This document shows positions 1-64,000 of a DNA stretch of 64,000 nt, piece by piece. The stretch covers positions 35,387,703 through 35,451,702 of the forward strand of contig CP154954.1 of the NCBI GenBank assembly GCA_039621445.1. The letters run 5' to 3'. The stretch is from Euglena gracilis (Eukaryota). The notes beneath the pieces were generated by a model, which saw only the letters and a program-made list of their open reading frames with translations, ran no database searches and was not told the DNA's origin. Each line of letters opens with the position of its first letter. Position 1 is the stretch's first letter. The position numbers were made by a program, and so were the translations under genes.

Positions 1-18
1 CCAGAGCCGGAGTATACC

Positions 19-1458
19 ATGGAAACCGACGAACCACCTCAACCGGCCCCTCCACCATCACAACTCGTACAAACTCAACCATCGGTACAATCTCAACCGC
101 AACCACCGTCAACCTCCGCCGTACCGCTGCCGGAACCGACAGCGATACGGGTTGTCGGAGAAAACCCCCTGCGTCCCGTAGTGGACAATATTCACTATGA
201 ACGAGTACCACAATCTGCTGATTTCGCTTACACATCCAAAGGAGAACAATATCTTCCCCTTGACAAAATTTACGAACTTGGATCCCATTTGGGAGCCATC
301 AATGTGAAAGGAGTGATAATGGATGGCATTGGTCCAAATTCCAAAATTTTGGGTATACCCACCTGGGCACTACCTGAAGTTTTGCGTGTGAATGCACCAC
401 CACATCCACCTGGTCCAATGGAACAACTCGCTTCGGCGACGAATCTTGTGCCGCCAGTAGCTCAACCTACTTCGGCACCACAAACAAAACCGGTACAAGC
501 AGTTTCGACTGCACAATCAACATCTACACCACCTGCCGCATCAGCAGCAGGTTCAAACCAACCTACACCTATACAAAGAACAGGACCCCCAGCTCAAGCC
601 GCGCAGTCGGCACGTGCAAAAGCACCCGCACAATCTACAATTCCTGTTCGAGCACCTCCTGTCACAACCCCTTCACAACCGGCTTCGGCTGGACAGACAC
701 AACCACCTGTTGAACCGGGACAACCTTTCTCGGGTCAACCTCGGTTTCAGTCGCCAGCACAGCACGCTACTTACAAGGAAGCTCTACAACATTTAACAGC
801 TCCAGCTAAACCCTACAACGTTGACGCACGCAAACGTCCGCGTGGACCGGAGTTTGCGACACCTCCACAAACACGTCCAACGCCCGACACACAACGTCGT
901 CGTTTGGACGACAACCCACAAAGCGCGGACGCGCAACGAGATCGTCAGGACAACGATGACCTGCCGATCCCGTCCAACGTACAACGATCTTTACAAGAAA
1001 TCTATCATCTAATGCGTCCAGACAAGCCCTTCGACGACATCGCTGGACATTACACCGCTGGTGTAACTGTTACAATGTGGAGAAAAACACGAGCATACCG
1101 AAAAGACGGTGCATACCGTTGGAACGAACAAGAGCGCGAAGCCGCAAAAGGACAGAAAGGCCAGAAAGGCAAAGGAAAGAGCGAAGGCTCACCTGGTTAC
1201 GACTTGGACGTACAATTTATGATTGACCATCTGTTCTGGATTTCAGACGGATGTGATACAATTATGCACGAGTACTACGAGGGACAACACCCTGGGTTGT
1301 TGCTCCCGAAGTACATCACAACATGGTTAAACTCTACAAGGAAAAAGCTCGTGGCTTTTTCTTCGACGGTACAATTTCCTGTTACGAAAGCCAGGATGGC
1401 ATCGACAAATTGCCGGGTTTCTGGCAACTACTTTTCTGGCTTGGATTCCATTGCCTGA
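19..1458 (+). CDS. Accessory ORF of element A, N-terminal segment (Pro/Gln/Thr-rich, with a KGQKGKGK motif); frame is open from base 1 and the true protein probably shifts frame near 1320
   Basis: 479-aa ORF. RKRPRGPEFATP and KGQKGQKGKGK...YDLDV match KRDRGPENLTP and KGKGKGKG...DYDV in element B. Homology continues in the 1323 frame. Confidence 0.65.
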   Translation: METDEPPQPAPPPSQLVQTQPSVQSQPQPPSTSAVPLPEPTAIRVVGENPLRPVVDNIHYERVPQSADFAYTSKGEQYLPLDKIYELGSHLGAINVKGVIMDGIGPNSKILGIPTWALPEVLRVNAPPHPPGPMEQLASATNLVPPVAQPTSAPQTKPVQAVSTAQSTSTPPAASAAGSNQPTPIQRTGPPAQAAQSARAKAPAQSTIPVRAPPVTTPSQPASAGQTQPPVEPGQPFSGQPRFQSPAQHATYKEALQHLTAPAKPYNVDARKRPRGPEFATPPQTRPTPDTQRRRLDDNPQSADAQRDRQDNDDLPIPSNVQRSLQEIYHLMRPDKPFDDIAGHYTAGVTVTMWRKTRAYRKDGAYRWNEQEREAAKGQKGQKGKGKSEGSPGYDLDVQFMIDHLFWISDGCDTIMHEYYEGQHPGLLLPKYITTWLNSTRKKLVAFSSTVQFPVTKARMASTNCRVSGNYFSGLDSIA

Positions 1459-2342
1459 ACTTCGGTTCATTTGCAATGCCGGCCAGCAAAGCGCACTACT
1501 TGCCACATCCAAAGCTACAATACGGATGGGAATCATCCCTTGACGCACTGAAGACAATGTTCGACAATATCCGAGAAATCGGACCACAAGGCATACAATG
1601 GGAAGTATTCCCACTTCCAAAGGACATACAATTGGTCACACACGAAATGTTCTGTTACAATTACCAAATTTTCCTCAACGAACACTACGGCCCACACTTC
1701 CAAGTGGTCGGAATCGACCTGACATACCCACAAAAATTCGTGCTTTGGTGCACCCACTGCCACCACAAGTTCCCCGTGGACTTCTGGGGCTTTGGCGTGC
1801 GCGGTCGGACAACCGACCGCCCAAATGCACAAAGGGCGCAGCCCCACCAACGCGAATGGGCGGAGGCCCAACAACAACGAAGACTACTCGGACACATCTG
1901 CCACAATCCCCTCGAAGTCAGGGAAATCGGATACGCCAGACGAAACCACCGACAAATGCTTCTGCATATGCAGACCTTCCAATGGAGAGCATGGGTGTCC
2001 TATGCTCTGGAAATCTACAACCTACTCAACCCAAAACCAACACATCCACAGGAATACCTCCCTCTTCGACCTGCATGGGACGAAGAAGGAAAACGGAAGT
2101 ACATCAAACGCCTGTTTGGCGAAACCCTCCGAAGAGAGGACTTTGCCCCATTTTTCAAGGGCAAACGTACAAATAAGGATGGGTTGGCCATCCCGATACT
2201 GGACTGGCTTCCTCGCGGATTGGGAGGAAACAGATTTGTCGGATGGCAAAACTTCCGTCTGCGACCACGTATAAAACTTCCTGAACCTGAAACTGAACCC
2301 CAGCCGCGGAGTCCGAAGCAGCGCAGTCTGCAACAACAATAA
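1323..2342 (+). CDS. Accessory ORF of element A, conserved globular domain with a CxxC...HxC putative zinc site
   Basis: Collinear similarity over ~170 aa with ORF 35372-36406 (-): PGFW.L.FWLG..C.NFG, GIQW...PLP, YP....L.C..C, VDFWGFG.RG, H.C..P. Confidence 0.75.
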   Translation: MVKLYKEKARGFFFDGTISCYESQDGIDKLPGFWQLLFWLGFHCLNFGSFAMPASKAHYLPHPKLQYGWESSLDALKTMFDNIREIGPQGIQWEVFPLPKDIQLVTHEMFCYNYQIFLNEHYGPHFQVVGIDLTYPQKFVLWCTHCHHKFPVDFWGFGVRGRTTDRPNAQRAQPHQREWAEAQQQRRLLGHICHNPLEVREIGYARRNHRQMLLHMQTFQWRAWVSYALEIYNLLNPKPTHPQEYLPLRPAWDEEGKRKYIKRLFGETLRREDFAPFFKGKRTNKDGLAIPILDWLPRGLGGNRFVGWQNFRLRPRIKLPEPETEPQPRSPKQRSLQQQ

Positions 2343-2827
2343 TGGCTGCATCATCTACAACAACAACAACGAAGCAGCAGCGAAGCCTGCAACACAAACG
2401 TTCGAAGAACGTTTACCCCACCTTCACCTGCTCCTACAATGCCGGTGGAACAAACCCGTACACTCTTCGGACTCATCCGTTTCCTCTTCTGGTCCCTCCC
2501 GCGATGAGGAAATGGAAGAAGGGACAGACAATGAACACAGTACACGCTCCGTCTCCTCCGCATCTGTGGATTCTGAAAGCGGAGAAGGTAGCGTACAACA
2601 GGCTCTAAGGGCCGAAGTGCCACCCACAACGCCTGTTCAGCAACGACCACAAACACCATTACCAGAACAGAACCGGAGACACCTACGGAACCTCCAACGG
2701 CCGGAGGCCTACAACTCCCACAATGGCCGAAATGCCTTCCGAACACGACAGCCCCTGTACCTTCGTCAGACACGGTTCCTTCCGCCTGGGCAAATGCGCC
2801 AGTCGTAAGAGAAATCACTGACGAAGA

Positions 2828-4744
2828 ATGGCACAAAGATGGACAGAACCGAACGACTTTATACTTATACCACCCGAAGTCGGACGAGCCGCCGGACGCG
2901 TCCTCGGAAGCGTCCGAAGTGGCGTAGCCTCGATGGTTGCAATGGTGCGATCGAGGTCTTCTTCTTCGACGCGAAGTCCCCGCGACACGGGACTTGGCGA
3001 AGCAACCACACAAGAAGCTCCGGCTTCGACAACAACACTGGCCGCAGACGCGGTTGATGTCCAAACACCCGAAGCGGTGACAACAACCGAATCGACTACG
3101 GTCGAACAAACGCCAGCACATGACACAACACCCGTAGTGGTACACACACCTGAACAGGTGGTACCGACGGCTGCTGACGTACCATCTAATACCACTACTA
3201 CTACCACACCAACAGCCAAACCTGCTCCAAAATCGCCTGCAGAACGCCCTCTTCCGCCGCAGCGGAAAGAGAAAGGCAGTAAGTCCAAAGCCAAACCTCA
3301 GCTTGCAGAACCATGCAAACCGGCTGAGCGACACAACGAGCCAAAACCACCACCGCCTGGGAGTGGTAGCAAATCAGGAAAGAAGGCGAAAACCTCAGCC
3401 GCTACCACACCAGCCCCGACATATACCGAAGTGGCCGGGAAAAGCCGGGTCACTTCTACCATTCGAGGTAGAACGCGACAAGATACAACGTCGGAGACCT
3501 CACAAGATGACAACATGCCGGTTGATGATAATGCCACACTTTGGCAAGAAGACATTATCTCCAACCTGCCGAGCGTCGGAGAACGCATTGTCAACATACA
3601 ATTAGCCCGCGAACGCGGACAACCGTTGAACAAGTGGATTCAACCGCTTTTCTTCAACGAAGAGAGGTACAATTACTATGTTCGACATATTTGGCGATTC
3701 TACAATGCCAGATCACCAAGAGTGTTTGCCCAATACCTTGGGGAGACATTCCTGTTTGACAATCGGCCGAATGGCCAAACAACCTGGCTCTGTACAGTCT
3801 GTCACAACATCCGTAACAGCATGCCCGCTGTGCATGTCTGTTATGCAGACAACAAACGGAAGAACTTTCACCACAATGAATTCGTGCCAAACACAGCCGC
3901 CCTGATTTGTGGTGATTGTATGCTTGCCTGGAGAAAACTGAACAACTTCCGGTGGTCGGAAGAGGACAGAGACCGTGACGTACCAGTTTTCTGTGTCAAC
4001 TGCCTACGGGCAGACATATGGTTGCCCGCAGATGGCGGAAATCTCAAGATCGTACCCGGAAACGAGGAAGTTCTTGAAGATTTCCTGAACTACTACAAAT
4101 CGAAACGACAAATGTACCAATTCAAAAGTTTCAAGAAAGCTGATGCTTTTGAGCGCGGCGGAATCGCCTTTGACTTCCAAACTGATTCCGGCGGAATCAG
4201 ACTGGCTGTGGAATGTACAAAAGGGCGATTGCCCCTGCTGTTCAATGATGACGACTGGAAACGCGTCATCTACCCACTGTTTACAAAGCCTTCAACGGTT
4301 TCTGAAACCACACAACGTTGGTTACTCCCTGACTACCCACCAGAACGACATGGATACGAACACTATTCAGAATGGGTTGGCTCCATTCTGAAACCCCATA
4401 TAACCCGTTGTGCCTGTGCATCCCGCGTGCATAACGTTGATTTCAACGCTATGCCTGGCATGCCACCACAGGTACCAGCAAATCATCCAAGATGGAACTA
4501 CTACATTTGGCCTGCAACTTTTCCGAGAGTTTTCTGGGAAAACTTGCAAATTTACCTCCACAAGCGAGCTGAAACGCTCAGAACAGAACTTCCCAAGGAG
4601 ATACAAGAAGTCAAAAGTTGGGTTATCCCCAGGATTGACATGGATAATCCTGACAAGGATACCCTGGACCTACGTCCAACCGAAATGACCTTGGTACAAG
4701 ACCCACACATGGGTGAGTCATTCAAGGAAACCCACAAACGTTGA
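2828..4744 (+). CDS. Accessory ORF of element A, C-terminal segment: Thr/Pro-rich linker plus a Cys-rich RING-like domain
   Basis: 638-aa ORF containing CTVC...HVC...ICGDCMLAW...FCVNCLR. A homolog lies on the minus strand at 63716-64000 (VCAKCVDSW...VPVLCVNCLR). Confidence 0.75.
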   Translation: MAQRWTEPNDFILIPPEVGRAAGRVLGSVRSGVASMVAMVRSRSSSSTRSPRDTGLGEATTQEAPASTTTLAADAVDVQTPEAVTTTESTTVEQTPAHDTTPVVVHTPEQVVPTAADVPSNTTTTTTPTAKPAPKSPAERPLPPQRKEKGSKSKAKPQLAEPCKPAERHNEPKPPPPGSGSKSGKKAKTSAATTPAPTYTEVAGKSRVTSTIRGRTRQDTTSETSQDDNMPVDDNATLWQEDIISNLPSVGERIVNIQLARERGQPLNKWIQPLFFNEERYNYYVRHIWRFYNARSPRVFAQYLGETFLFDNRPNGQTTWLCTVCHNIRNSMPAVHVCYADNKRKNFHHNEFVPNTAALICGDCMLAWRKLNNFRWSEEDRDRDVPVFCVNCLRADIWLPADGGNLKIVPGNEEVLEDFLNYYKSKRQMYQFKSFKKADAFERGGIAFDFQTDSGGIRLAVECTKGRLPLLFNDDDWKRVIYPLFTKPSTVSETTQRWLLPDYPPERHGYEHYSEWVGSILKPHITRCACASRVHNVDFNAMPGMPPQVPANHPRWNYYIWPATFPRVFWENLQIYLHKRAETLRTELPKEIQEVKSWVIPRIDMDNPDKDTLDLRPTEMTLVQDPHMGESFKETHKR

Positions 4745-5117
4745 GGGTTTCCTGCCTCCAACAATCAGCTACGGCTGAGATGGGCGTAGTCCCGCATAAT
4801 GAGCGAAGTCTCGAGCGTGAATACGCACTTCATCATCGCGTTCAACACCGTTTCAAGACACAATGGCGGAATCGCCTTAAGTTTGGTGGATAACACGTTG
4901 ATCGCGAAGATTCAAGACCACAAAGACACTACGGTGTCAAGTAAGAAGACACACGAAGCACAGCATGCGCGCCAGAATTCTTTTGCGCTTTGTGCTCCAA
5001 ACAAGGTAACCGTAATTGGGAACCAGACCATGGTATCCTGGTACTGTCTCCCTGAACCTGGGACTGTGCCTGGCATCCCGACTGGCCTGGTCCAGAAGGG
5101 AAATCGGGCAGAGCCCT

Positions 5118-5127
5118 GGGAGGGGGA
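5118..5127 (+). promoter_or_regulatory. Polypurine tract (plus-strand primer) of element A
   Basis: GGGAGGGGGA immediately followed by TGTGTAC, the expected PPT/3' LTR arrangement. Confidence 0.65.
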
Positions 5128-5560
5128 TGTGTACCAGGCAGCCATTCTGCCATGGCACTGTGTACCAGATACAAGGGGCTACGGCCTACAACCTGGCTAC
5201 GGCCGGGCCGTACACAGTGGCATGGTTAAAACCATAAGACAAAGAGAGAATCTCAGAGCTAGCGAAAGCTTAGCGAAAGTAACTGGTTCCTAATTCAAGG
5301 TTACAGGGTTTGGTGCTTTGCAATTCTGTTTTAGAATTCTGAGGGCGAAGTCCCATTTGAATAGAAGTTTTCTTTCTTTCTTTTACAAAGCTCGAAAGAG
5401 CAAAAGTCACAATCATATAAGGGACTGCGGTCCCACCAATTCTTCTGCTTGTGTGCTTTGCATTCAAAAGGGGAAAAGGGAAGCAAATTTTATTGTTACT
5501 CCCCCCGCGGGCTTTTCAGGAGGAAAGCGTAAGTAGAAAAGCCGGGGTGGGACGTACACT
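5128..5560 (+). repeat. Putative 3' LTR of element A (~433 bp)
   Basis: Starts TGTGTAC right after the PPT and ends GTACACT (6-bp perfect inverted repeat GTGTAC/GTACAC). Satellite sequence begins at 5561 (attgggccttactcc). The partner 5' LTR is not in the window. Confidence 0.65.
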
Positions 5561-8500
5561 ATTGGGCCTTACTCCGAGTAACCGAATGGGTGTTCCAGGA
5601 GGCCTCCAAAGTCAGGGGAACCGTTGGTTTCATGATTGTCGTGGTTTAATGGTAAGAATAACATGCAGCCGAAAGGTTGGTTGCAATAAATGAGCACATT
5701 TAGATGGGTGCATTCGACCATTCCGGGGGACATTTACCAGGTCAGCCCAGGTTACCATGTAAAAATGGACCAAATTGGGCCGTACTCCGAGTTACCGAAT
5801 GGGTGTTCCAGGAGGCCTCCAAAGTCAGGGGACCCGTTGGTTTCATGATTGTCGTGGTTTAATGGTAAGAAAAACATGCACCCGAAAGGTTGGTTGCAAG
5901 AAATGAGCAGATTTAGATGGGTGCATTCGACCATTCCGGGGGACATTTACCAGGTCAGCCCAGGTTGCCATGTAAAAATGGACCAAGTTGGGCCTTACTC
6001 CGAGTAACCGAATGGGTGTTCCAGGACGCCTCCAAAGTCAGGGGACCCGTTGGTTTCACGATTCTCGTGGTTTACTGGTAAGAAAAACATGCAGCCGGAA
6101 GGTTGGTTGCAAGGAATGAGCACATTTAGATGGGTGCATTCGACCATTCCGGGGGACATTTACCAGGTCAGCCCAGGTTACCATGTAAAAATGGACCAAA
6201 TTGGGCCTTACTCCGAGTAACCGAATGGGTGTTCCAGGAGGCCTCCAAAGTCAGGGGACCCGTTGGTTTCATGATTGTCGTGGTTTAATGGTAAGAAAAA
6301 CATGCAGCCGGAAGGTTGGTTGCAAGAAATGAGCACATTTAGATGGGTGCATTCGACCATTCCGGGGGACATATACCAGGTCAGCCCAGGTTACCATGTA
6401 AAAATGGACCAAATTGGGCCTTATTCCGAGTAACCGAATGGGTGTTCCAGGAGGCCTCCAAAGTCAGGGGACCCGTTGGTTTCATGATTTTCGTGGTTTA
6501 ATGGTAAGAATAACATGCAGCCGAAAGGTTGGTTGCAATAAATGAGCACATTTAGATGGGTGCATTCGACCATTCCGGGGGACATTTACCAGGTCAGCCC
6601 AGGTTACCATGTAAAAATGGACCAAATTGGGCCTTACTCCGAGTTAGCGAATGGGTGTTCCAGGAGGCCTCCAAAGTCAGGGGAACCGTTGGTTTCATGA
6701 TCGTCGTGGTTTAATGGAAGAAGAACATGCAGCCGAAAGGTTGGTTGCAATAAATGAGCACATTTAGATGGGTGCATTCGACCATTCCGGGGGACATTTT
6801 CTAGGTCAGCCCAGGTTACCATGTAAAAAGGGACCAAATTGGGCCTTACTCCGAGTAACCGAATGGGTGTTCCAGGACGCCTCCAAAGTCAGGGGACCCG
6901 TTGGTTTCACGATTGCGTGGTTTAATGGTAAAAAAAACATGCAGCCGGAAGGTTGGTTGCAAGAAATGAGCAGATTTAGATGGGTGCATTCGACCATTCC
7001 GGGGGACATTTACCAGGTCAGCCCAGGTTGCCATGTAAAAATGGACCAAATTGGGCCTTACTCCGAGTAACCGAATGGGTGTTCCAGGAGGCCGCCAAAG
7101 TCAGGGGACCCGTTGGTTTCACGATTGTCGTGGTTTAATGGTAAGAAAAACATGCAGCCGGAAGGTTGGTTGCAAGAAATGAGCAGATTTAGATGGGTGC
7201 ATTCGACCATTCCGGGGGACATTTACCAGGTCAGCCCAGGTTGCCATGTAAAAATGGACCAAATTGGGCCTTACTCCGAGTAACCGAATGGGTGTTCCAG
7301 GAGGCCGCCAAAGTCAGGGGACCCGTTGGTTTCACGATTGTCGTGGTTTAATGGTAAGAAAAACATGCAGCCGGAAGGTTGGTTGCAAGAAATGAGCACA
7401 TTTAGATGGGTGCATTCGACCATTCCGGGGGACATTTACCAGGTCAGCCCAGGTTACCATGTAAAAATGGACCAAATTGGGCCTTACTCCGAGTAACCGA
7501 ATGGGTGTTCCAGGAGGCCTCCAAAGTCAGGGGACCCGTTGGTTTCACGATTGTCGTGGTTTAATGGTAAGAAAAACATGCAGCCGGAAGGTTGGTTGCA
7601 AGAAATGAGCAGATTTAGATGGGTGCATTCGACCATTCCGGGGGACATTTACCAGGTCAGCCCAGGTTACCATGTAAAAATGGACCAAATTGGGCCTTAC
7701 TCCGAGTAACCGAATGGGTGTTCCAGGAGGCCGCCAAAGTCAGGGGACCCGTTGGTTTCACGATTGTCGTGGTTTAATGGTAAGAAAAACATGCAGCGGG
7801 AATGTTGGTTGCAAGAAACGAGCAGATTTAGATGGGTGCATTCGACCATTCCGGGGGACATTTACCAGGTCAGCCCAGGTTACCATGTAAAAATGGACCA
7901 AACTGGGCCTTACTCCGAGTAACCGAATGGGTGTTCCAGGAGGCCTCCAAAGTCAGGGGAGCCGTTGGTTTCATGATTGTCGTGGTTTAATGGTAAGAAA
8001 TACATGCAGCCGGAAGGTTGGTTGCAAGAAATGAGCAGATTGAGATGGGTGCATTCGACCATTCCGGGGGACATTTACCAGGTCAGCCCAGGTTACCATG
8101 TAAAAATGGACCAAATTGGGCCTTACTCCGAGTAACCGAATGGGTGTTCCAGGAGGCCTCCAAAGTCAGGGGACCCGTTGGTTTCACGATTGTCGTGGTT
8201 TAATGGTAAGAAAAACATGCAGCCGGAAGGTTGGTTGCAAGGAATGAGCCCATTTAGATGGGTGCACTCGACCATTCCGGGGGACATTTACCAGGTCAGC
8301 CCAGGTTACCATGTAAAAATGGACCAAATTGGGCCTTACTCCGAGTAACCGAATGGGTGTTCCAGGAGGCCTCCAAAGTCAGGGGACCCGTTGGTTTCAC
8401 GATTGTCGTGGTTAAATGGTAAGAAAAACATGCAGCCGGAAGGTTGGTTGCAGGAAATGAGCAGATTTAGATGGGTGCATTCGACCATTCCGGGGGACAT

Positions 8501-36406: not shown

Positions 36407-36542
36407 GGATTCCGTGCTTGGTGTTCGAGCAAATTCCTACTCAGCATCACCACGATTCGAGTAAACCGGTGCGACTGGGGATGGTCGGGTTTCCCGACGT
36501 GCCCGTTCTGCCGTCACGTCGGGCGCTGGCGGAGCTTCCTCC

Positions 36543-39185: not shown

Positions 39186-39245
39186 AACCTTGATTTTCTC
39201 AAGGGCGTCGCGCGCATTTGGTCATCCCAAATGACTTTGGTATTG

Positions 39246-39650
39246 TCAACAGCCCGGTTTTTTGAGCTGTTTGGTGAGGGGCACCGCGATTTTCGCGAAG
39301 TCCTTCATATAAATCGCGTAGTATTGGGCTAATCCCAAAAATCCTTTGAGGTGAGTAATCGTTTTGATTACCTCAGGGGTCCATTTCTTAATGGCTTCGA
39401 GTTTACTCGGAGCGGCTTTCCGCTGTCCATTGCTGAGGATGTGCCCACAAAATTTTATAAGTATCCGAAACAAATGCATTTTCGCGCCTTTCGCGAAAAG
39501 CACATGTTTTTGAAAAGCGGTTAATACCGCGCAAACATGGTGGAAATGTGTGACGAGGATATCCTCGCTCGATTTTGCGGATGGTGGTGGTGTTCCCACC
39601 AGCACATCATCAATGTACACAATGGCAAACGGTAAATCGCGTAGAAACAC
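39246..39650 (-). CDS. pol: pol: reverse transcriptase C-terminal half (YIDD catalytic motif), frameshifted segment
   Basis: VYIDDVLV, KFCGHILS, LKGFLGLAQYYAIYMKDFAKIAVPLT. Confidence 0.92.
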   Translation of the reverse strand: MFLRDLPFAIVYIDDVLVGTPPPSAKSSEDILVTHFHHVCAVLTAFQKHVLFAKGAKMHLFRILIKFCGHILSNGQRKAAPSKLEAIKKWTPEVIKTITHLKGFLGLAQYYAIYMKDFAKIAVPLTKQLKKPGC

Positions 39651-42005: not shown

Positions 42006-42123
42006 TCCGAGCGGAAATGTGGAGTGGGGGGTTAGGGGACCCGAAATAATTCCGGGTACTGACCGTGAAGGCGGATGGGCAGGGGGGGTAAGGTTGATCA
42101 GGTCTTACCTCCATCTGTTCATC

Positions 42124-42162
42124 AGCCCAGAGGTCCGTGCCCTCGGACCTCGGGCTCCCCTA
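42124..42162 (-). promoter_or_regulatory. Putative gag-pol stop-codon readthrough signal (UAG-GGG plus a 13-bp hairpin)
   Basis: Minus strand reads TAG GGG AGCCC GAGGTCCG agggca CGGACCTC t GGGCT, and the frame stays open after the TAG. Confidence 0.55.
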
Positions 42163-47600: not shown

Positions 47601-47779
47601 CTCCAAAGTCAGGGGACCCGTTGGTTTCATGATTGTCGTGGTTTAATGGTAAGAAAAACATGCAGCCGGAAGGTTGGTTGCAAGAAATGAGCACATTTAG
47701 ATGGGTGCATTCGACCATTCCGGGGGACATTTACCAGGTCAGCCCAGGTTACCATGTAAAAAAACAAAAAAAAAAAAAC

Positions 47780-47815
<36 letters not shown>

Positions 47816-53800: not shown

Positions 53801-56800
53801 CGAATGGGTGTTCCAGGAGGCCTCCAAAGTCAGGGGACCCGTTGGTTTCATGATTGTCGTGGTTTAATGGTAAGAAAAACATGCACCGGGAATGTTGGTT
53901 GCAAGAAATGAGCAGATTTAGATGGGTGCATTCGACCATTCCGGGGGACATTTACCAGGTCAGCCCAGGTTACCATGTAAAAATGGACCAAATTGGGCCT
54001 TACTCCGAGTTACCGAATGGGTGTTCCAGGAGGCCTCCAAAGTCAGGGGACCCGTTGGTTTCATGATTGTCGTGGTTTAATGGTAGAAAAAACATGCAGC
54101 GGGAATGTTGGTTGCAAGAAATGAGCAGATTTAGATGGGTGCATTCGACCATTCCGGGGGACATTTACCAGGTCAGCCCAGGTTACCATGTAAAAATGGA
54201 CCAAATTGGGCCTTACTCCGAGTTACCGAATGGGTGTTCCAGGAGGCCTCCAAAGTCAGGGGACCCGTTGGTTTCATGATTGTCGTGGTTTAATGGTAAG
54301 AAAAACATGCAGCGGGAATGTTGGTTGCAAGAAATGAGCAGATTTAGATGGGTGCATTCGACCATTCCGGGGGACATTTACCAGGTCAGCCCAGGTTACC
54401 ATGTAAAAATGGACCAAATTGGGCCTTACTCAGAGTCACCGAATGGGTGCTCCAGGAGGCCTCCAAAGTCCAGGGGACCCGTTGGTTTCATGATTGTCGT
54501 GGTTTAATGGTAAGAAAAACATGCACCGGGAATGTTGGTTGCAAGAAATGAGCAGATTTAGATGGGTGCGTTCGACCATTCCGGGGGACATTTACCAGGT
54601 CAGCCCAGGTTACCATGTAAAAATGGACCAAATTGGGCCTTACTCCGAGTAACCGAACGGGTGTTCCAGGAGGCCTCCAAAGTCCAGGGGACCCGTTGGT
54701 TTCATGATTGTCGTGGTTTAATTGTAAGAAAAACATGCACCGGGAATGTTGGTTGCAAGAAATGAGCAGATTTAGATGGGTGCATTCGACCGTTCCGGGG
54801 GACATTTACCAGGTCAGCCCAGGTTACCATGTTAAAATGGACCAAATTGGGCCTTACTCCGAGTTACCGAATGGGTGTTCCAGGAGGCCTCCAAAGTCAG
54901 GGGACCCGTTGGTTTCATGATTGTCGTGGTTTAATGGTAAGAAAAACATGCACCGGGAATGTTGGTTGCAAGAAATGAGCAGATTTAGATGGGTGCATTC
55001 GACCATTCCGGGGGACATTTACCAGGTCAGCCCAGGTTACCATGTAAAAATGGACCAAATTGGGCCTTACTCCGAGTTACCGAATGGGTGTTCCAGGAGG
55101 CCTCCAAAGTCAGGGGACCCGTTGGTTTCATGATTGTCGTGGTTTAATGGTAAGAAAAACATGCAGCCGGAAGGTTGGTTGCAAGAAATGAGCAGATTTA
55201 GATGGGTGCATTCGACCATTCCGGGGGACATTTACCAGGTCAGCCCAGGTTACCATGTAAAAATGGACCAAATTGGGCCTTACTCCGAGTTACCGAATGG
55301 GTGTTCCAGGAGGCCTCCAAAGTCAGGGGACCCGTTGGTTTCATGATTGTCGTGGTTTAACGGTAAGAAAAACATGCAGCGGGAATGTTGGTTGCAAGAA
55401 ATGAGCAGATTTAGATGGGTGCATTCGACCATTCCGGGGGACATTTACCAGGTCAGCCCAGGTTACCATGTACAAATGGACCAAATTGGGCCTTACTCAG
55501 AGTCACCGAATCGGTGCTCCAGGAGGCCTCCAAAGTCAGGGGACCCGTTGGTTTCATGATTGTCGTGGTTTAATGGTAAGAAAAACATGCAGCGGGAATG
55601 TTGGTTGCAAGAAATGAGCAGATTTAGATGGGTGCGTTCGACCATTCCGGGGGACATTTACCAGGTCAGCCCAGGTTACCATGTAAAAATGGACCAAATT
55701 GGGCCTTACATCGAGTTACCGAATGGGTGTTCCAGGAGGCCTCCAAAGTCAGGGGACCCGTTGGTTTCATGATTGTCGTGGTTTAATGGTAAGAAAAACA
55801 TGCAGCGGGAATGTTGGTTGCAAGAAATGAGCAGATTTAGATGGGTGCATTCGACCATTCCGGGGGACATTTACCAGGTCAGCCCAGGTTACCATGTAAA
55901 AATGGACCAAAATGGGCCTTACTCCGAGTAACCGAATGGGTGTTCCAGGAGGCCTCCAAAGTCAGGGGACCCGTTGGTTTCATGATTGTCGTGGTTTAAT
56001 GGTAAGAAAAACATGCACCGGGAATGTTGGTTGCAAGAAATGAGCAGATTTAGATGGGTGCGTTCGACCATTCCGGGGGACATTTACCAGGTCAGCCCAG
56101 GTTACCATGTAAAAATGGACCAAATTGGGCCTTACTCAGAGTCACCGAATGGGTGCTCCAGGAGGCCTCCAAAGTCAGGGGACCCGTTGGTTTCATGATT
56201 GTCGTGGTTTAATGGTAAGAAAAACATGCACCGGGAATGTTGGTTGCAAGAAATGAGCAGATTTAGATGGGTGCGTTCGACCATTCCGGGGGACATTTAC
56301 CAGGTCAGCCCAGGTTACCATGTAAAAATGGACCAAATTGGGCCTTACTCCGAGTTACCGAATGGGTGTTCCAGGAGGCCTCCAAAGTCCAGGGGACCCG
56401 TTGGTTTCATGATTGTCGTGGTTTAATGGTAAGAAAAACATGCACCGGGAATGTTGGTTGCAAGAAATGAGCAGATTTAGATGGGTGCATTCGACCATTC
56501 CGGGGGACATTTACCAGGTCAGCCCAGGTTACCATGTAAAATGGACCAAATTGGGCCTTACTCCGAGTTACCGAATGGGTGTTCCAGGAGGCCTCCAAAG
56601 TCAGGGGACCCGTTGGTTTCATGATTGTCGTGGTTTAATGGTAAGAAAAACATGCACCGGGAATGTTGGTTGCAAGAAATGAGCAGATTTAGATGGGTGC
56701 TTTCGACCATTCCGGGGGACATTTACCAGGTCAGCCCAGGTTACCATGTAAAAATGGACCAAATTGGGCCTTACTCCGAGTTACCGAATGGGTGTTCCAG

Positions 56801-59800
56801 GAGGCCTCCAAAGTCAGGGGACCCGTTGGTTTCATGATTGTCGTGGTTTAATGGTAAGAAAAACATGCAGCCGGAAGGTTGGTTGCAAGAAATGAGCAGA
56901 TTTAGATGGGTGCATTCGACCATTCCGGGGGACATTTACCAGGTCAGCCCAGGTTACCATGTAAAAATGGACCAAATTGGGCCTTACTCCGAGTTACCGA
57001 ATGGGTGTTCCAGGAGGCCTCCAAAGTCAGGGGACCCGTTGGTTTCATGATTGTCGTGGTTTAACGGTAAGAAAAACATGCAGCGGGAATGTTGGTTGCA
57101 AGAAATGAGCAGATTTAGATGGGTGCATTCGACCATTCCGGGGGACATTTACCAGGTCAGCCCAGGTTACCATGTATAAATGGACCAAATTGGGCCTTAC
57201 TCAGAGTCACCGAATCGGTGCTCCAGGAGGCCTCCAAAGTCCAGGGGACCCGTTGGTTTCATGATTGTCGTGGTTTAATGGTAAGAAAAACATGCAGCGG
57301 GAATGTTGGTTGCAAGAAATGAGCAGATTTAGATGGGTGCGTTCGACCATTCCGGGGGACATTTACCAGGTCAGCCCAGGTTACCATGTAAAAATGGACC
57401 AAATTGGGCCTTACATCGAGTTACCGAATGGGTGTTCCAGGAGGCCTCCAAAGTCAGGGGACCCGTTGGTTTCATGATTGTCGTGGTTTAATGGTAAGAA
57501 AAACATGCAGCGGGAATGTTGGTTGCAAGAAAGGAGCAGATTTAGATGGGTGCACTCGACCATTCCGGGGGACATTTACCAGGTCAGCCCAGGTTACCAT
57601 GTAAAAAAGGACCAAAATGGGCCTTACTCCGAGTAACCGAATGGGTGTTCCAGGAGGCCTCCAAAGTCAGGGGACCCGTTGGTTTCATGATTGTCGTGGT
57701 TTAATGGTAAGAAAAACATGCAGCCGGAAGGTTGGTTGCAAGAAATGAGCAGATTTAGATGGGTTCATTCGACCATTCCGGGGGACATTTACCAGGTCAG
57801 CCCAGGTTACCATGTAAAAATGGACCAAATTGGGCCTTACTCCGAGTTACCGAATGGGTGTTCCAGGAGGCCTCCAAAGTCAGGGGACCCGTTGGTTTCA
57901 TGATTGTCGTGGTTTCATGGTAAGAAAAACATGCAGCGGGAATGTTGGTTGCAAGAAACGAGCAGATTTAGATGGGTGCATTCGACCATTCCGGGGGACA
58001 TTTACCAGGTCAGCCCAGGTTACCATGTAAAAATGGACCAAATTGGGCCTTACTCCGAGTAACCGAATGGGTGTTCCAGGAGGCCTCCAAAGTCAGGGGA
58101 CCCGTTGGTTTCATGATTGTCGTGGTTTCATGGTAAGAAAAACATGCAGCGGGAATGTTGGTTGCAAGAAATGAGCAGATTTAGATGGGTGCATTCGACC
58201 ATTCCGGGGGACATTTACCAGGTCAGCCCAGGTTACCATGTATAAATGGACCAAATTGGGCCTTACTCAGAGTCACCGAATGGGTGCTCCAGGAGGCCTC
58301 CAAAGTCCAGGGGACCCGTTGGTTTATTGATTGTCGTGGTTTAATGGTAAGAAAAACATGCAGCGGGAATGTTGGTTGCAAGAAATGAGCAGATTTAGAT
58401 GGGTGCGTTCGACCATTCGGGGGGACATTTACCAGGTCAGCCCAGGTTACCATGTAAAAATGGACCAAATTGGGCCTTACTCCGAGTTACCGAATGGGTT
58501 CTCCAGGAGGCCTCCAAAGTCAGGGGACCCGTTGGGTTCATGATTGTCGTGGTTTAATGGTAAGAAAAACATGCAGCGGGAATGTTGGTTGCAAGAAATG
58601 AGCAGATTTAGATGGGTGCGTTCGACCATTCGGGGGGACATTTACCAGGTCAGCCCAGGTTACCATGTATAAATGGACCAAATTGGGCCTTACTCAGAGT
58701 CACCGAATGGGTGCTCCAGGAGGCCTCCAAAGTCCAGGGGACCCGTTGGTTTATTGATTGTCGTGGTTTAATGGTAAGAAAAACATGCAGCGGGAAGGTT
58801 GGTTGCAAGAAAAGAGCAGATTTAGATGGGTGCATTCGACCATTCCGGGGGACATTTACCAGGTCAGCCCAGGTTACCATGTATAAATGGACCAAATTGG
58901 GCCTTACTCAGAGTCACCGAATGGGTGCTCCAGGAGGCCTCCAAAGTCCAGGGGACCCGTTGGTTTCATGATTGTCGTGGTTTAATGGTAAGAAAAAACA
59001 TGCAGCGGAAATGTTGGTTGCAAGAAATGAGCAGATTTAGATGGGGGCATTCGACCATTCCGGGGGACATTTACCAGGTCAGCCCAGGTTACCATGTAAA
59101 AATGGACCAAATTGGGCCTTACTCCGAGTTACCGAATGGGTGTTCCAGGAGGCCTCCAAAGTCAGGGGACCCGTTGGTTTCATGATTGTCGTGGTTTAAT
59201 GGTAAGAAAAACATGCAGCGGGAATGTCGGTTGCAAGAAATGAGCAGATTCAGATGGGTGCATTCGACCATTCCGGGGGACATTTACCAGGTCAGCCCAG
59301 GTTACCATGTAAAAATGGACCAAATTGGGCCTTACTCCGAGTTACCGAATGGGTGTTCCAGGAGGCCTCCAAAGTCAGGGGACCCGTTGGTTTCATGATT
59401 GTCGTGGTTTAATGGTAAGAAAAACATGCAGCGGGAATGTTGGTTGCAAGAAAGGAGCAGGTTTAGATGGGTGCGTTCGACCATTCCGGGGGACATTTAC
59501 CAGGTCAGCCCAGGTTACCATGTAAAAATGGACCAAAATGGGCCTTACTCCGAGTAACCGAATGGGTGTTCCAGGAGGCCTCCAAAGTCAGGGGACCCGT
59601 TGGTTTCATGATTGTCGTGGTTTAATGGTAAGAAAAACATGCAGCCGGAAGGTTGGTTGCAAGAAATGAGCAGATTTAGATGGGTGCATTCGACCATTCC
59701 GGGGGACATTTACCAGGTCAGCCCAGGTTACCATGTAAAAATGGACCACATTGGGCCTTACTCCGAGTAACCGAATGGGTGTTCCAGGAGGCCTCCAAAG

Positions 59801-62800
59801 TCAGGGGACCCGTTGGTTTCATGATTGTCGTGGTTTAATGGTAAGAAAAACATGCAGCCGGAAGGTTGGTTGCAAGAAAGGAGCAGATTTAGATGGGTGC
59901 ATTCGACCATTCCGGGGGACATTTACCAGGTCAGCCCAGGTTACCATGTAAAAATGGACCAAATTGGGCCTTACTCCGAGTTACCGAATGGGTGTTCCAT
60001 GAGGCCTCCAAAGTCAGGGGACCCGTTGGTTTCATGATTGTCGTGGTTTAATGGTAAGAAGAACATGCAGCCGGAAGGTTGGTTGCAAGAAATGAGCAGA
60101 TTTAGATGGGTGCATTCGACCATTCCGGGGGACATTTACCAGGTCAGCCCAGGTTACCATGTAAAAATGGACCAAATTGGGCGTTACTCCGAGTTACCGA
60201 ATGGGTGTTCCAGGAGGCCTCCAAAGTCAGGGGACCCGTTGGTCTCATGATTGTCGTGGTTTAATGGTAAGAAAAACATGCAGCCGGAAGGTTGGTTGCA
60301 AGAAATGAGCAGATTTAGATGGGTGCATTCGACCATTCCGGGGGACATTTACCAGGTCAGCCCAGGTTACCATGTAAAAATGGACCAAATTGGGCGTTAC
60401 TCCGAGTTACCGAATGGGTGTTCCAGGAGGCCTCCAAAGTCAGGGGACCCGTTGGTTTCATGATTGTCGTTGTTTAATGGTAAGAAAAACATGCAGCCGG
60501 AAGGTTGGTTGCAAGAAATGAGCAGATTTAGATGGGTGCATTCGACCATTCCGGGGACATTTACCAGGTCAGCCCAGGTTACCATGTATAAATGGACCAA
60601 ATTGGGCCTTACTCCGAGTCACCGAATGGGTGTTCCAGGAGGCCTCCAAGGTCAGGGGACCCGTTGGTTTCATGATTGTCGTGGTTTAATGGTAAGAAAA
60701 ACATGCAGCGGGAAGGTATGTTGCAAGAAATGAGCAGATTTAGATGGGTGCATTCGACCATTCCGGGGGACATTTACCAGGTCAGCCCAGGTTACCATGT
60801 AAAAATGGACCAAATTGGGCCTTACTCCGAGTCACCGAATGGGTGTTCCAGGAGGCCTCCAAAGTCAGGGGACCCGTTGGTTTCATGATTGTCGTGGTTT
60901 AATGGTAAGAAAAACATGCAGCGGGAAGGTTGGTTGCAAGAAATGAGCAGATTTAGATGGGTGCATTCGACCATTCCGGGGGACATTTACCAGGTCAGCC
61001 CAGGTTACCATGTAAAAATGGACCAAATTGGGCCTTACTCCGAGTTACCGAATGGGTGTTCCAGGAGGCCTCCAAAGTCAGGGGACCCGTTGGTTTCATG
61101 ATTGTCGTTGTTTAATGGTAAGAAAAACATGCAGCCGGAAGGTTGGTTGCAAGAAATGAGCAGATTTAGATGGGTGCATTCGACCATTCCGGGGGGACAT
61201 TTACCAGGTCAGCCCAGGTTACCATGTAAAAATGGACCAAATTGGGCCTTACTCCGAGTTACCGAATGGGTGTTCCAGGAGGCCTCCAAAGTCAGGGGAC
61301 CCGTTGGTTTCATGATTGTCGTGGTTTAATGGTAAGAAAAACATGCAGCCGGAAGGTTGGTTGCAAGAAATGAGCAGATTTAGATGGGTGCATTCGACCA
61401 TTCCGGGGGACATTTACCAGGTCAGCCCAGGTTACCATGTATAAATGGACCAAATTGGGCCTTACTCCGAGTCACCGAATGGGTGTTCCAGGAGGCCTCC
61501 AAGGTCAGGGGACCCGTTGGTTTCATGATTGTCGTGGTTTAATGGTAAGAAAAACATGCAGCCGGAAGGTTGGTTGCAAGAAATGAGCAGATTTAGATGG
61601 GTGCATTCGACCATTCCGGGGGACATTTACCAGGTCAGCCCAGGTTACCATGTAAAAATGGACCAAATTGGGCCTTACTCCGAGTAACCGAATGGGTGTT
61701 CCAGGAGGCCTCCAAAGTCAGGGGACCCGTTGGTTTCATGATTGTCGTGGTTTAATGGTAAGAAAAACATGCAGCCGGAAGGTTGGTTGCAAGAAATGAG
61801 CAGATTTAGATGGGTGCATTCGACCATTCCGGGGGACATTTACCAGGTCAGCCCAGGTTACCATGTAAAAATGGACCAAATTGGGCCTTACTCCGAGTTA
61901 CCGAATGGGTGTTCCAGGAGGCCTCCAAAGTCAGGGGACCCGTTGGTTTCATGATTGTCGTGGTTTAATGGTAAGAAAAACATGCAGCGGGAATGTTGGT
62001 TGGAAGAAATGAGCAGACTTAGATGGGTGCGTTCGACCATTCCGGGGGACATTTACCAGGTCAGCCCAGGTTACCATGTATAAATGGACCAAATTGGGCC
62101 TTACTCCGAGTTACCGAATGGGTGTTCCAGGAGGCCTCCAAAGTCAGGGGACCCGTTGGTTTCATGATTGTCGTGGTTTAATGGTAAGAAAAACATGCAG
62201 CCGGAAGGTTGGTTGCAAGAAATGAGCAGATTTAGATGGGTGCATTCGACCATTCCGGGGGACATTTACCAGGTCAGCCCAGGTTACCATGTAAAAATGG
62301 ACCAAATTGGGCCTTACTCCGAGTAACCGAATGGGTGTTCCAGGAGGCCTCCAAAGTCAGGGGACCCGTTGGTTTCATGATTGTCGTGGTTTAATGGTAA
62401 GAAAAACATGCAGCCGGAAGGTTGGTTGCAAGAAATGAGCAGATTTAGATGGGTGCATTCGACCATTCCGGGGGACATTTACCAGGTCAGCCCAGGTTAC
62501 CATGTAAAAATGGACCAAATTGGGCCTTACTCCGAGTTACCGAATGGGTGTTCCAGGAGGCCTCCAAAGTCAGGGGACCCGTTGGTTTCATGATTGTCGT
62601 GGTTTAATGGTAAGAAAAACATGCAGCGGAATGTTGGTTGCAAGAAATGAGCAGATTTAGATGGGTGCATTCGACCATTCCGGGGGACATTTACCAGGTC
62701 AGCCCAGGTTACCATGTATAAATGGACCAAATTGGGCCTTACTCCGAGTCACCGAATGGGTGTTCCAGGAGGCCTCCAAAGTCAGGGGACCCGTTGGTTT

Positions 62801-63715
62801 CATGATTGTCGTGGTTTAATGGTAAGAAAAACAAGGTATGTTGCAAGAAATGAGCAGATTTAGATGGGTGCGTTCGACCATTCCGGGGGACATTTACCAG
62901 GTCAGCCCAGGTTACCATGTAAAAATGGACCAAATTGGGCCTTACTCCGAGTTACCGAATGGGTGTTCCAGGAGGCCTCCAAAGTCAGGGACCCGTTGGT
63001 TTCATGATTGTCGTGGTTTAATGGTAAGAAAAACATGCAGCGGGAATGTTGGTTGCAAGAAATGAGCAGATTTAGATGGGTGCATTCGACCATTCCGGGG
63101 GACATTTACCAGGTCAGCCCAGGTTACCATGTAAAAATGGACCAAATTGGGCCTTACTCCGAGTTACCGAATGGGTGTTCCAGGAGGCCTCCAAAGTCAG
63201 GGGACCCGTTGGTTTCATGATTGTCGTGGTTTAATGGTAAGAAAAACATGCAGCGGGAATGTTGGTTGCAAGAAATGAGCAGATTTAGATGGGTGCATTC
63301 GACCATTCCGGGGGACATTTACCAGGTCAGCCCAGGTTACCATGTAAAAATGGACCAAATTGGGCCTTACTCCGAGTTACCGAATGGGTGTTCCAGGAGG
63401 CCTCCAAAGTCAGGGGACCCGTTGGTTTCATGATTGTCGTGGTTTAATGGTAAGAAAAAGATGCAGCGCGAATGTTGGTTGCAAGAAATGAGCAGATTTA
63501 GATGGGTGCATTCGACCATTCCGGGGGACATTTACCAGGTCAGCCCAGGTTACCATGTAAAAATGGACCAAATTGGGCCTTACTCCGAGTAACGAAAGGG
63601 TGTTCCAGGAGGCCTCCAAAGTCAGGGGACCCGTTGGTTTCACGATTGTCGTGGTTTAATGGTAAGAAAAACATGCAGCGGGAATGTTGGTTGCAAGAAA
63701 TGAGCAGATTTAGAT
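44654..63715. repeat. 213-bp tandem satellite array 2 (~89 monomers), same family and orientation as array 1
   Basis: Same consensus and 213-nt period (e.g. 54708, 54921, 55134, 55347). Confidence 0.98.
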
Positions 63716-64000
63716 CAGTCGTCAAGCTTGAGGTTTGAGTACTTGAAGGCGTCCTTGAACTTTCTGTTCAAGGTGGAGTATTCCTCCAGTGGCTTCTCGG
63801 CACTCGGCACGATTGTGCGAACTGCGCCTTCCGCAGTGTGCCAGAAGGTACCTCGCAGGCAGTTGACGCAGAGTACTGGTACATTCGTACCATCTCGCTC
63901 CGTGTAGCCAAAATTGTGCTTGTGGGTCCAACTGTCCACGCACTTGGCACATACCAAGGCGGCACAGTTGGGTATGTACATATCCTTGTGGAACGATTTC
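63716..64000 (-). mobile_element. Fragment of a third, diverged element (C): RING-like part of the accessory ORF, truncated by satellite; continues beyond the right edge
   Basis: KSFHKDMYIPNCAALVCAKCVDSWTHKHNF...NVPVLCVNCLR...IVPSAEKPLEE aligns with KNFHHNEFVPNTAALICGDCMLAWRKLNNF...DVPVFCVNCLR...IVPGNEEVLED of ORF 2828-4744. The stop codon straddles the satellite junction. Confidence 0.8.

Follow-up and report, generated by a model that had tools for sequence, protein, structure and literature searches.

Relics of a DAM-type chromovirus and of an apparently separate Cys/His-rich repeat family in a 213-bp satellite array of Euglena gracilis

The window, by which we mean the whole 64,000-base stretch of Euglena gracilis DNA analysed here, is read, with confidence a little above even, as satellite-rich, heterochromatin-like DNA in which a 213-bp array holds the broken relics of two high-copy families, joined at one point by rearrangement. 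The first family is a chromovirus of the Ty3/Gypsy group. Its copy in the window is dead: it lacks LTRs, is cut at both ends and carries frameshifts and stops. Judging from its domains, this retroelement is probably an added member of the DAM-LTR kind. The second, which we call X, appears from sequence comparison to be a repeat family separate from the Gypsy part. We expect that intact relatives of the chromovirus replicate by the usual LTR-retrotransposon cycle and that, by analogy with established chromovirus biology, the chromodomain of their integrase probably directs new insertions to heterochromatin bearing methylated histones, in which case copies would pile up near satellites. The fusion of pol to X would be a rearrangement at position 37159, not shared by the copies in three other runs, and the block that contains it would be a DNA fragment captured at a break, or a product of array turnover, rather than the outcome of an integrase reaction.

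Satellite accounts for 48,841 bases (76.3%) of the window, in three arrays of a 213-bp unit. One monomer used as a BLAST query gave 230 matches across the 64 kb, 206 of them full length and all on the plus strand. Monomers are on average 98.4% identical to their consensus and 97.2-97.7% identical to one another, the same within and between the three arrays, and no higher-order period was found at lags 1-12. Three non-satellite blocks, A (1-5560), B (35393-44653; 9,261 bp) and C (63716-64000), all abut this homogeneous satellite, as the initial annotation had described and as BLAST and the monomer comparison bear out. Its view that A resembles B and C as protein only is likewise upheld: tblastx is significant for A against B (E 1.6e-33) and for A against C (E 1.7e-19), with 36-41% amino-acid identity in the main matches, whereas blastn returns just 55-nt and 29-nt scraps. 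B and C did not match in the same comparison. The broader claim that every non-satellite base is Gypsy-derived was not confirmed, since Gypsy homology is limited to 7,495 of the 15,106 non-satellite bases (37159-44653); A, C and 35393-37158, which had been taken for Gypsy pieces, would instead represent family X and contain no Gypsy domain.

Table 1. Features of the window, in order of position.
Feature	Position	Strand	Basis or remark
X copy A, decayed; coding split over four frames	1..5560	+	ORFs; tblastx to B and C
X domain 1 in A: PGFWxLxFWLG, then C-x2-C (1749-1766) and H-x-C (1893-1907)	1413..1907	+	
X Cys/His cluster: C-x2-C-H, H-x-C, C-x2-C, C-x-N-C	3791..4003	+	
X C-terminal motif block PGMPPQ..NHP..N..IWP....W.NLQ	4454..4549	+	alignment A1
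All-purine tract of 18 nt in A, 77 nt short of the satellite	5466..5483	+	
213-bp satellite array 1, ~140 monomers	5561..35392	+	
X copy joined to the chromovirus: low-complexity region, KG repeats, domain 1	35393..37158	-	ORF 35372-36436
Chromodomain, final third lost at the 37159 breakpoint	37158..37250	-	Pfam Chromo and alignment A2
Dead DAM-type chromovirus (Ty3/Gypsy) fragment	37159..44653	-	Pfam; tblastn with relatives
RNase H, integrase zinc-binding, integrase core, Tf2-type SH3	37335..39152	-	Pfam; ORF 36543-39221
Reverse transcriptase	39246..39951	-	RVT_1 67.7 bits; frameshift near 39645
DAM-like (N6-adenine methyltransferase-like) domain	40312..40739	-	homology to P0013; frameshift near 40537
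Aspartic protease active-site motif LIDTGC	41844..41861	-	conserved in relatives
gag, first Met at 44164	42222..44164	-	
213-bp satellite array 2, first base at monomer phase 78	44654..47762	+	
A-rich tract, expansion of the monomer's own A5 run	47763..47815	+	
213-bp satellite array 3, last base at monomer phase 145	47816..63715	+	
X copy C: second half of the Cys/His cluster and ~40 residues on	63716..64000	-	tblastx to A 3860-4144

The Gypsy domains that had been proposed for block B are genuine, as five Pfam families exceed their cut-offs there (RVT_1, RT_RNaseH, rve, Integrase_H2C2 and zf-CCHC), and SH3_Tf2-1, at 29.4 bits, falls just short of its cut-off of 30. Along the minus strand RVT_1, RT_RNaseH, Integrase_H2C2 and rve succeed one another as in a Ty3/Gypsy pol, and the whole fragment reads gag-PR-DAM-like-RT-RH-IN-chromodomain, which supports a chromovirus-type element with a methyltransferase-like domain placed between protease and reverse transcriptase. 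The fragment is collinear with the relative P0002 by tblastn, and alignment of P0001, P0002 and P0010 passes through frames -3/-2/-3. At least four frameshifts and in-frame stops interrupt it, with single-base indels relative to other copies (contigs) at 42633, 42032, 40537 and 39645 and TGA stops inside the coding frame at 43474-43472 and 39224-39222. The two CCHC knuckles of gag (42830-42871 and 42399-42440) lie in separate frames in B, and the zf-CCHC match, at 24.9 bits, clears its cut-off of 20.8, as expected of a gag zinc knuckle; the reverse transcriptase has YIDD at 39606-39617 (minus strand), and Pfam matched no protease domain in B. A gag-UAG-PR arrangement, suggested earlier, is not established: the frame of pol does contain a TAG (42162-42160), but gag is closed by a TGA of its own frame (42224-42222), and a frameshift occurs there. 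The Chromo match in B, at 23.5 bits, stays under the 25.1-bit cut-off because the breakpoint at 37159 has removed part of the domain; in six of eight intact relatives it scores 27-38 bits. The F/W/Y positions, which we take to be the aromatic cage, are present in alignment A2.

The methyltransferase-like domain is recognised through relatives, and to that extent the initial annotation stands, although B itself has no Pfam match to Dam. A stretch of P0013 that scores 33.5 bits with Pfam Dam (cut-off 28.1) is homologous to 40793-40440 of B. Dam (PF05869) is precomputed in 19 of 82 pol relatives and, in the eight that were rescanned with Pfam, is present in seven and above the cut-off in four; for B and the clade nearest to it the match is below the cut-off or gone. 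The catalytic triplet of B reads HPP (LWMHPP, 40539-40556), with a non-aromatic residue after it. An NPP[FYW] motif is present in 15 more distant relatives. Of the ten nearest relatives with sequence at this site, none has it: five show HPP, four show NPP with I, L or V after it, and one (P0002) shows NPS. With the NPP[F/Y] motif lost, the domain in B probably has no adenine methyltransferase activity. The clade in which the motif has been replaced is well populated, with at least ten close public relatives and, in a single run, matching contigs by the tens of thousands, and this replacement bears on whether the domain is an enzyme there at all. Contigs near the B clade were found in a library whose label reads leaf litter metagenome.

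What had seemed the most unusual part, a DAM-like domain and a chromodomain in one Gypsy element, was already described in 2026, and the claim of an unrecognised architecture falls for that part: Fernandez-Moreno et al. (May 2026, bioRxiv 10.64898/2026.05.21.726589) define the DAM-LTR or DAM-chromovirus layout, chromodomain-bearing forms included. DAM-LTRs as presented there share with B and its relatives a Ty3/Gypsy-type pol, a prokaryote-like Dam (PF05869, in the relatives) and a C-terminal chromodomain, and they differ in that B and its closest relatives have lost NPP-aromatic and show a weak or absent Dam match. The preprint reports that expressed DAM domains gave no adenine methylation in E. 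coli, distinguishes five lineages and names DIRS retrotransposons as the source of the DAM/MT domain; the text consulted contains neither 'satellite' nor 'centromer' (0 occurrences each) and mentions no extra large ORF. A weak C5-methylase match in P0054 (19.1 bits, cut-off 22) resembles what the preprint calls EpiLTRs. DIRS elements have the same methyltransferase-like domain family as B, in which it sits between protease and reverse transcriptase, but the integrase of B is of the DDE type (rve, Integrase_H2C2) and not a tyrosine recombinase. The plant centromeric Gypsy lineages CRM and ATHILA, compared here by description only, resemble B in lying among satellite arrays, whereas B shows no intact insertion, LTR or target duplication. 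The CRM integrase bears a C-terminal targeting module; neither CRM nor ATHILA is known to carry a DAM domain.

The junction of pol and X lies at 37159, inside the chromodomain. Here X has pol as its upstream partner, on the same strand and in frame, and this is the only place where the upstream side of X is visible. Such an arrangement would be expected if a satellite-targeting chromovirus sublineage, ordered gag-PR-DAM-RT-RH-IN-chromo-X, carried X as a C-terminal extension or accessory gene, with A and C as 3' parts of its elements and with an internal deletion in B from the end of the chromodomain to the N-terminal part of X; we consider this explanation unlikely. Both parts of B are close to contigs of the same runs, all at about 98% identity (14 differences in 678 and 10 in 719 for pol, 10 in 448 for X), and the orientation of all three X copies would let an upstream pol fall outside the window; the regions upstream of A and C do lie outside it, so neither copy contradicts a pol-X order. 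Contigs from runs X15, X16 and X17, on which bridging was judged rather than on genomic copy counts, tell against a common element: they match pol up to 37159 and then diverge from B, and no listed contig of these runs bridges the point. Their 30-letter continuation, reverse-complemented, is a canonical chromodomain end as in P0010, and from the other side record 9 of X15 matches 36712-37159 with 10 differences before 142 letters unlike B. In seven of seven close relatives (alignment A2) pol ends ~24 residues past the chromodomain, X occurs in 0 of the 82 pol relatives, and a weak alignment, with a score reached by 3.7% of shuffles, places the B breakpoint ~100 residues inside the ORF of A. 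The proposal that the >1500-aa ORF belongs to the element is not supported, given the divergence at 37159 and the absence of X from pol relatives. The rearrangement that we prefer does have a counterpart here, in that an internal deletion within a longer pol-X element would leave the same loose ends.

The satellite junctions also speak on how B arrived. The four of them fall at monomer phases 1, 29, 78 and 145, those of B being 29 and 78, and neither LTR ends nor target duplications were seen at any of them, a further point against an accessory gene of an integrating element; between 35200 and 44900 no direct repeats were found besides the satellite and a 33-nt coding repeat. At least three of the four are truncations: a contig of X17 runs 201 letters of non-satellite sequence past 44654, at the 5' end of B; P0094 continues past the junction at ~35389-35392, where X in B loses its 3' part; and C is ended by satellite inside its ORF. 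At the site of B, 48 nt of one monomer are missing and nothing is duplicated, which fits capture or array turnover better than an integrase reaction. The lack of LTRs and target duplications, the four different phases and the truncations do not support the earlier suggestion that the family targets this satellite. An assembly error in repeat-rich sequence would weigh against our preferred reading, and long-read artefacts at some or all junctions would account for all four satellite junctions and 37159 being non-canonical, as well as for the fact that no independent run shows a bridging contig. We regard this as very improbable: the arrays flanking B have the same orientation and equal homogeneity, the junctions are clean, the window contains no N, and truncated elements are generally common in satellite arrays of real genomes.

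Family X is characterised by one large ORF, rich in Cys and His, that runs to 1,500 residues or more and includes long disordered linkers. In A, coding sequence runs through frames at 1-1458, 1257-2342, 2275-2808 and 2822-4744, followed by ~815 nt of non-coding sequence, and A is frameshifted where the ORF of B stays intact (alignment A3, whose sequences A, B and P0094 define the invariant columns of domain 1). P0094 is 91% identical to the X part of B over residues 255-350. C is bounded on its 3' side by satellite and on its 5' side by the end of the window, and A runs ~250 residues beyond the point where C ends. The Cys/His cluster noted earlier in this ORF is confirmed and is conserved, with its four pairs kept in all four sequences that contain the whole cluster (A, P0083, P0085 and P0090; alignment A1), and it probably binds two zinc ions. 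The label RING-like is unsupported: like RING and PHD fingers, the cluster has eight conserved Cys/His positions in four pairs, but its spacing (C-x2-C-x12-H-x-C-x21-C-x2-C-x25-C-x2-C) departs from the RING consensus, and the sole match is zf_RING-like in P0090 at E 1.8. With that exception, Pfam returned nothing at E up to 10 for the X parts of A, B and C and five relatives, a PDB profile search with X returned nothing, and structure models were unusable (pLDDT 37.9 for domain 1, and 40.9). Among 1.84 billion representative proteins, X has 11 relatives, all short (123-380 residues) and none fused to pol, which again argues against an accessory gene.

Most likely X is a nucleic-acid- or chromatin-binding zinc protein of another mobile or repeated element. 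A more specific form of this idea, which strikes us as improbable, would make X the large protein of a mobile element in its own right, such as a DNA transposon with a zinc-module transposase, and the window a graveyard where illegitimate recombination joined two unrelated families. Several diverged X copies are present, contigs of all four runs examined cover the X part of B, and language-model features of domain 1 lie nearest the Transposase_21, Plavaka and RAG1 RNase H clusters (0.89-0.91); these scores are at lead level, with 125-140 of 256 features in common where true members usually share at least 170. Besides the empty Pfam and PDB searches, the absence of an identifiable catalytic triad and of visible terminal repeats counts against it. 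Should X prove to be an element in its own right, it may stand for a transposon family not yet described, and if it is an accessory gene of DAM-chromoviruses, it would be a new module.

The 3' end of A bears on the latter reading. Three purine runs of at least 12 nt occur on the plus strand of A, the longest being the one at 5466-5483, close to its 3' end, which may, as a weak hint only, be a polypurine tract with an LTR stub after it. Were it one, X would lie inside an LTR element, which would go against our preferred view of two separate families. That X is a true downstream module of a long DAM-chromovirus sublineage, with B keeping the pol-then-X order minus an internal deletion and A ending in a polypurine tract and LTR stub, is in our judgement doubtful, marginally more so than the broader accessory-gene explanation; such elements would measure ~14 kb or more, live in satellite heterochromatin and encode, besides a chromodomain, both a degenerate DAM-like domain and a multi-zinc protein of ~1,500 residues. 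A 17-nt pyrimidine run lies near the same tract, and the local sequence is of low complexity.

The retroelement in block B, the middle of the three non-satellite blocks, is an additional member of the DAM-LTR class and belongs to a clade whose catalytic motif has decayed, and the large Cys/His-rich ORF of family X, found in blocks A and C and in one end of B, is a real, repeated gene that is nearly an orphan. In B, the domains that Pfam identifies on the minus strand are zf-CCHC, RVT_1, RT_RNaseH, Integrase_H2C2, rve, SH3_Tf2-1, and Chromo, in Ty3/Gypsy order, two of them just short of their cut-offs: SH3_Tf2-1 at 29.4 of the 30 bits required and Chromo at 23.5 of 25.1. With the stretch between protease and reverse transcriptase as the query, metagenome and genome assemblies yielded 82 longer proteins, 19 of which carry a precomputed match to PF05869 (Dam, N6-adenine methyltransferase). 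Among eight relatives that were rescanned, seven have Dam upstream of RVT_1, with a score above the Pfam cut-off in four (P0013, P0020, P0028, and P0054), and seven have Chromo at the C-terminus, above its cut-off in six. Since the Dam stretch of P0013 aligns to B at 40793-40440 and Dam recurs in relatives, the methyltransferase-like domain proposed in the initial annotation is real and, though B itself gives no Pfam hit there, Dam-like.

Coordinates of the principal features
Feature	Position	Strand	Remark
Block A	1-5560
Block B	35393-44653
First part of X in B	35393-37158
DTG protease motif	41844-41861	-
Block C	63716-64000
Satellite array 1	5561-35392	+	Tandem Repeats Finder
Satellite array 2	44654-47762	+	Tandem Repeats Finder
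Satellite array 3	47816-63715	+	Tandem Repeats Finder
A-rich tract, 53 bp	47763-47815		sole separator of arrays 2 and 3; expands the monomer's own A5 run

The layout, which the initial annotation did not recognize as that of a described family, is now in print: a preprint of May 2026 (bioRxiv 10.64898/2026.05.21.726589), in its available text, describes what it states to be the first report of Dam-like domains in non-DIRS LTR retrotransposons, termed "DAM-LTRs". The same text distinguishes five DAM-LTR lineages, assigns 30.9% of all DAM-carrying elements to chromodomain-bearing LTR elements, applies the name "EpiLTRs" where a cytosine methyltransferase is added, finds an Asn-Pro-Pro-aromatic pocket to be conserved, and reports that expression of the domains in E. 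coli brought no gain of 6mA; neither 'satellite' nor 'centromer' appears in it. A full-text literature search for 'DAM-LTR' returned no further paper.

Whereas the Asn-Pro-Pro-aromatic motif is conserved in the DAM-LTR class as the available text of the preprint presents it, the motif is replaced in B and its closest clade. In B, LWMHPP at the catalytic site precedes a non-aromatic residue, and NPP-aromatic occurs in none of the ten closest relatives that cover the site: HPP is found in P0001, P0004, P0005, P0006, and P0012, NPP with I, L, or V after it in P0007, P0008, P0009, and P0022, and NPS in P0002. NPP with F, Y, or W as the next residue appears in 15 more distant relatives among the 82, at about 36-47% identity to the query with the exception of P0016 (63%). 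The Pfam Dam score in the closest clade is under the cut-off or absent. Because the motif is replaced, and given its role in adenine methyltransferases as summarized in the available text of the preprint (bioRxiv 10.64898/2026.05.21.726589), the Dam-like domain of this clade is unlikely to be a conventional active enzyme. Two further features were noted around this domain. Relative P0054 has a weak C5 cytosine-methylase match at its N-terminus (19.1 bits; cut-off 22) in addition to Dam, RT, integrase, and chromodomain, a layout resembling that of the EpiLTRs as described in the available preprint text. A conserved C-x2-C ... D-F-D-C-G-C motif (41079-41135, minus strand), situated in B after the protease and ahead of the DAM-like domain, is kept in five of the six relatives covering the site in the pol alignment and is partly missing in P0007; it may be an extra zinc knuckle.

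The chromovirus copy in B is dead, and both of its ends are cut. Successive parts of it align to relatives in frames -3, -2, and -3, contigs of other copies have single-base indels exactly at its shift points (42633, 42032, 40537, and 39645), and conserved sequence is broken by TGA stops at 43474-43472 and 39224-39222. No direct repeats able to serve as LTRs were found in B. A contig from X17, an RNA-seq library, extends 201 letters past 44654 in non-satellite sequence, and the 5' end of the chromovirus is therefore truncated. The proposed gag-UAG-PR arrangement is not established: a TAG (42162-42160) does lie in the pol frame, six codons upstream of the conserved pol start, but the gag frame stops at a TGA (42224-42222), and the frameshifts obscure the mode of gag-pol expression. 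Instead of using readthrough or frameshifting, pol may have its own start codon, because three of the four relatives reaching the conserved pol start (P0004, P0005, and P0009; P0002 being the fourth) begin with Met-Gly-Thr-Asp exactly there. At this place, near 42140 on the minus strand, B reads Glu-Gly-Thr-Asp.

The other end of the chromovirus, where pol meets X at 37159, lies within the chromodomain. In the pol alignment, the seven close relatives all keep the canonical end of the domain and stop about 24 residues later; B diverges. Contigs aligned to B came from four runs, and in X15, X16, and X17 there are contigs that match pol as far as 37159 and then differ from B, the continuation on the pol side being, once reverse-complemented, the canonical chromodomain end. 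From the opposite direction, a 590-letter contig of X15 matches the X side over 36712-37159 with 10 differences and has 142 letters unlike B on its other side. Contigs whose match breaks off at 37159 also include one of 906 letters from X17, with 569 letters past the breakpoint, and one of 942 letters from X15. With contigs breaking away on both sides of 37159, B thus joins two sequences that are separate in X15, X16, and X17. Contig depths, including the near-empty bin 35932-36247 of X15 and the bin 44148-44463 of X17, were left out of consideration, such tables being ill-suited to ranking the parts of B.

One possible origin of the join is illegitimate recombination between two unrelated repeats. 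An internal deletion within a longer element carrying X downstream of pol, which would make X an accessory gene as the initial annotation held, we regard as rather unlikely, if far from negligible. Pol and X share strand and frame in B, and an 18-nt purine tract, possibly a polypurine tract, lies 77 nt before the end of A, both in keeping with such an element; against it, X is present in none of the 82 pol relatives, and a weak alignment puts the breakpoint of B about 100 residues inside the ORF of A. When the first residues of A were compared with the post-breakpoint residues of B, the similarity was not significant, its score being reached by 42% of shuffles. Near its 3' end, A has a 17-nt pyrimidine run (5368-5384) and the 18-nt purine run (5466-5483), both on the plus strand and less than 120 nt apart; a hairpin in this region is no better than shuffles (z -0.65), 38 of 200 of which fold at least equally well.

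In A, X is a single coding region broken over four frames and totalling some 1,580 codons at the least, with low-complexity Pro/Gln/Ser-rich stretches and KG repeats. Its conserved parts are domain 1 (the motif PGFWxLxFWLG with C-x2-C and H-x-C after it), a cluster whose four Cys/His pairs are intact in each of the four sequences spanning it, and a C-terminal block; C holds a segment of the Cys/His cluster. The X of B has a Lys-Gly-rich repeat (KGKGKG / GKGGKxAGP) in three tandem 33-nt units (36145-36243, minus strand); the corresponding KG run of A (1147-1179, plus strand) is shorter. Searched exhaustively, 1.84 billion representatives gave 11 relatives of X, all of 123-380 residues; a word-indexed search with the X ORF of B gave one match, P0094, and one with the tail of B gave none. 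Pattern searches of metagenome contigs with the pol alignment and with that of X domain 1 yielded 153 and 148 matches, respectively, none of which was confirmed, and no relatives of the B pol were found among viral contigs. The description of X as "RING-like" finds no support in Pfam, where nothing meaningful appears at E up to 10 and the sole match is zf_RING-like at E 1.8 in one relative. PDB profile searches with X returned nothing at E up to 10, AlphaFold models are unusable (mean pLDDT 37.9 and 40.9), and the ESM Atlas gave no usable match for domains 2 and 3. For domain 1, the nearest clusters by language-model features are Transposase_21, Plavaka, and RAG1 RNase H (0.89-0.91), which, with just 125-140 features shared, are leads only. 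Our best guess is that X belongs to a mobile element and encodes a protein that binds nucleic acid or chromatin in a zinc-dependent manner.

The 213-bp satellite makes up 48,841 bases, or 76.3%, of the window. By blastn, the reference monomer has 230 matches in the window, 206 of them full length and all on the plus strand. Mean identity to the consensus is 98.4%, pairwise identity is 97.2-97.7% within as well as between arrays, and the three arrays behave as one. Identity is flat over lags 1 to 12, and there is thus no higher-order repeat. The A-rich tract is probably a local slippage expansion rather than a retroelement tail. Derivation of the satellite from the elements was rejected, because by blastn the monomer matches A, B, or C at an E-value of 1.0 at best. 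Rfam and tRNA scans of the window gave no match, and a literature search for a 213-bp satellite returned unrelated papers only.

As the initial annotation had noted, A resembles B and C only as protein (tblastx E 1.6e-33 and 1.7e-19; blastn finds just 55-nt and 29-nt scraps); B and C do not overlap in content. The monomer phase at the satellite junctions is 1 for A, 29 to the left and 78 to the right of B, and 145 for C, and no duplication is seen at any of the four. Three are truncations: X in B ends at the satellite where P0094 and A continue, the chromovirus is cut at its 5' end, and C is cut by the satellite inside the X ORF. If any of the four is natural, it could only be the end of A. 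Because block B stands in for 48 nt of one monomer in an array that is otherwise continuous and equally homogeneous, fragment capture at a break, or array turnover, fits better than an integrase reaction. The initial observations are partly confirmed and their interpretation partly supported, the Gypsy element standing as a DAM-LTR member; targeting of the satellite is unproven, with junctions at different phases, no duplication, and three truncated ends.

It is established that chromodomain-bearing chromovirus integrases are tethered to heterochromatin. In the pol alignment, intact relatives keep the F/W/Y positions of the chromodomain, which we take to be the aromatic cage. Tethering through the chromodomain would be the most likely reason for the accumulation of such elements here; the introduction of the preprint likewise cites heterochromatin tethering of such integrases (bioRxiv 10.64898/2026.05.21.726589).

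Part of B is present in 20 run rows from 17 studies. Contigs 95-99% identical also occur in an RNA-seq library that carries the label leaf litter metagenome and in two runs only guessed to be RNA, a provenance that is no proof of transcription. The best-matching run, which may be the source sample, contains 98,379 contigs on B at ≥90% identity, and the family is therefore very abundant in that run.
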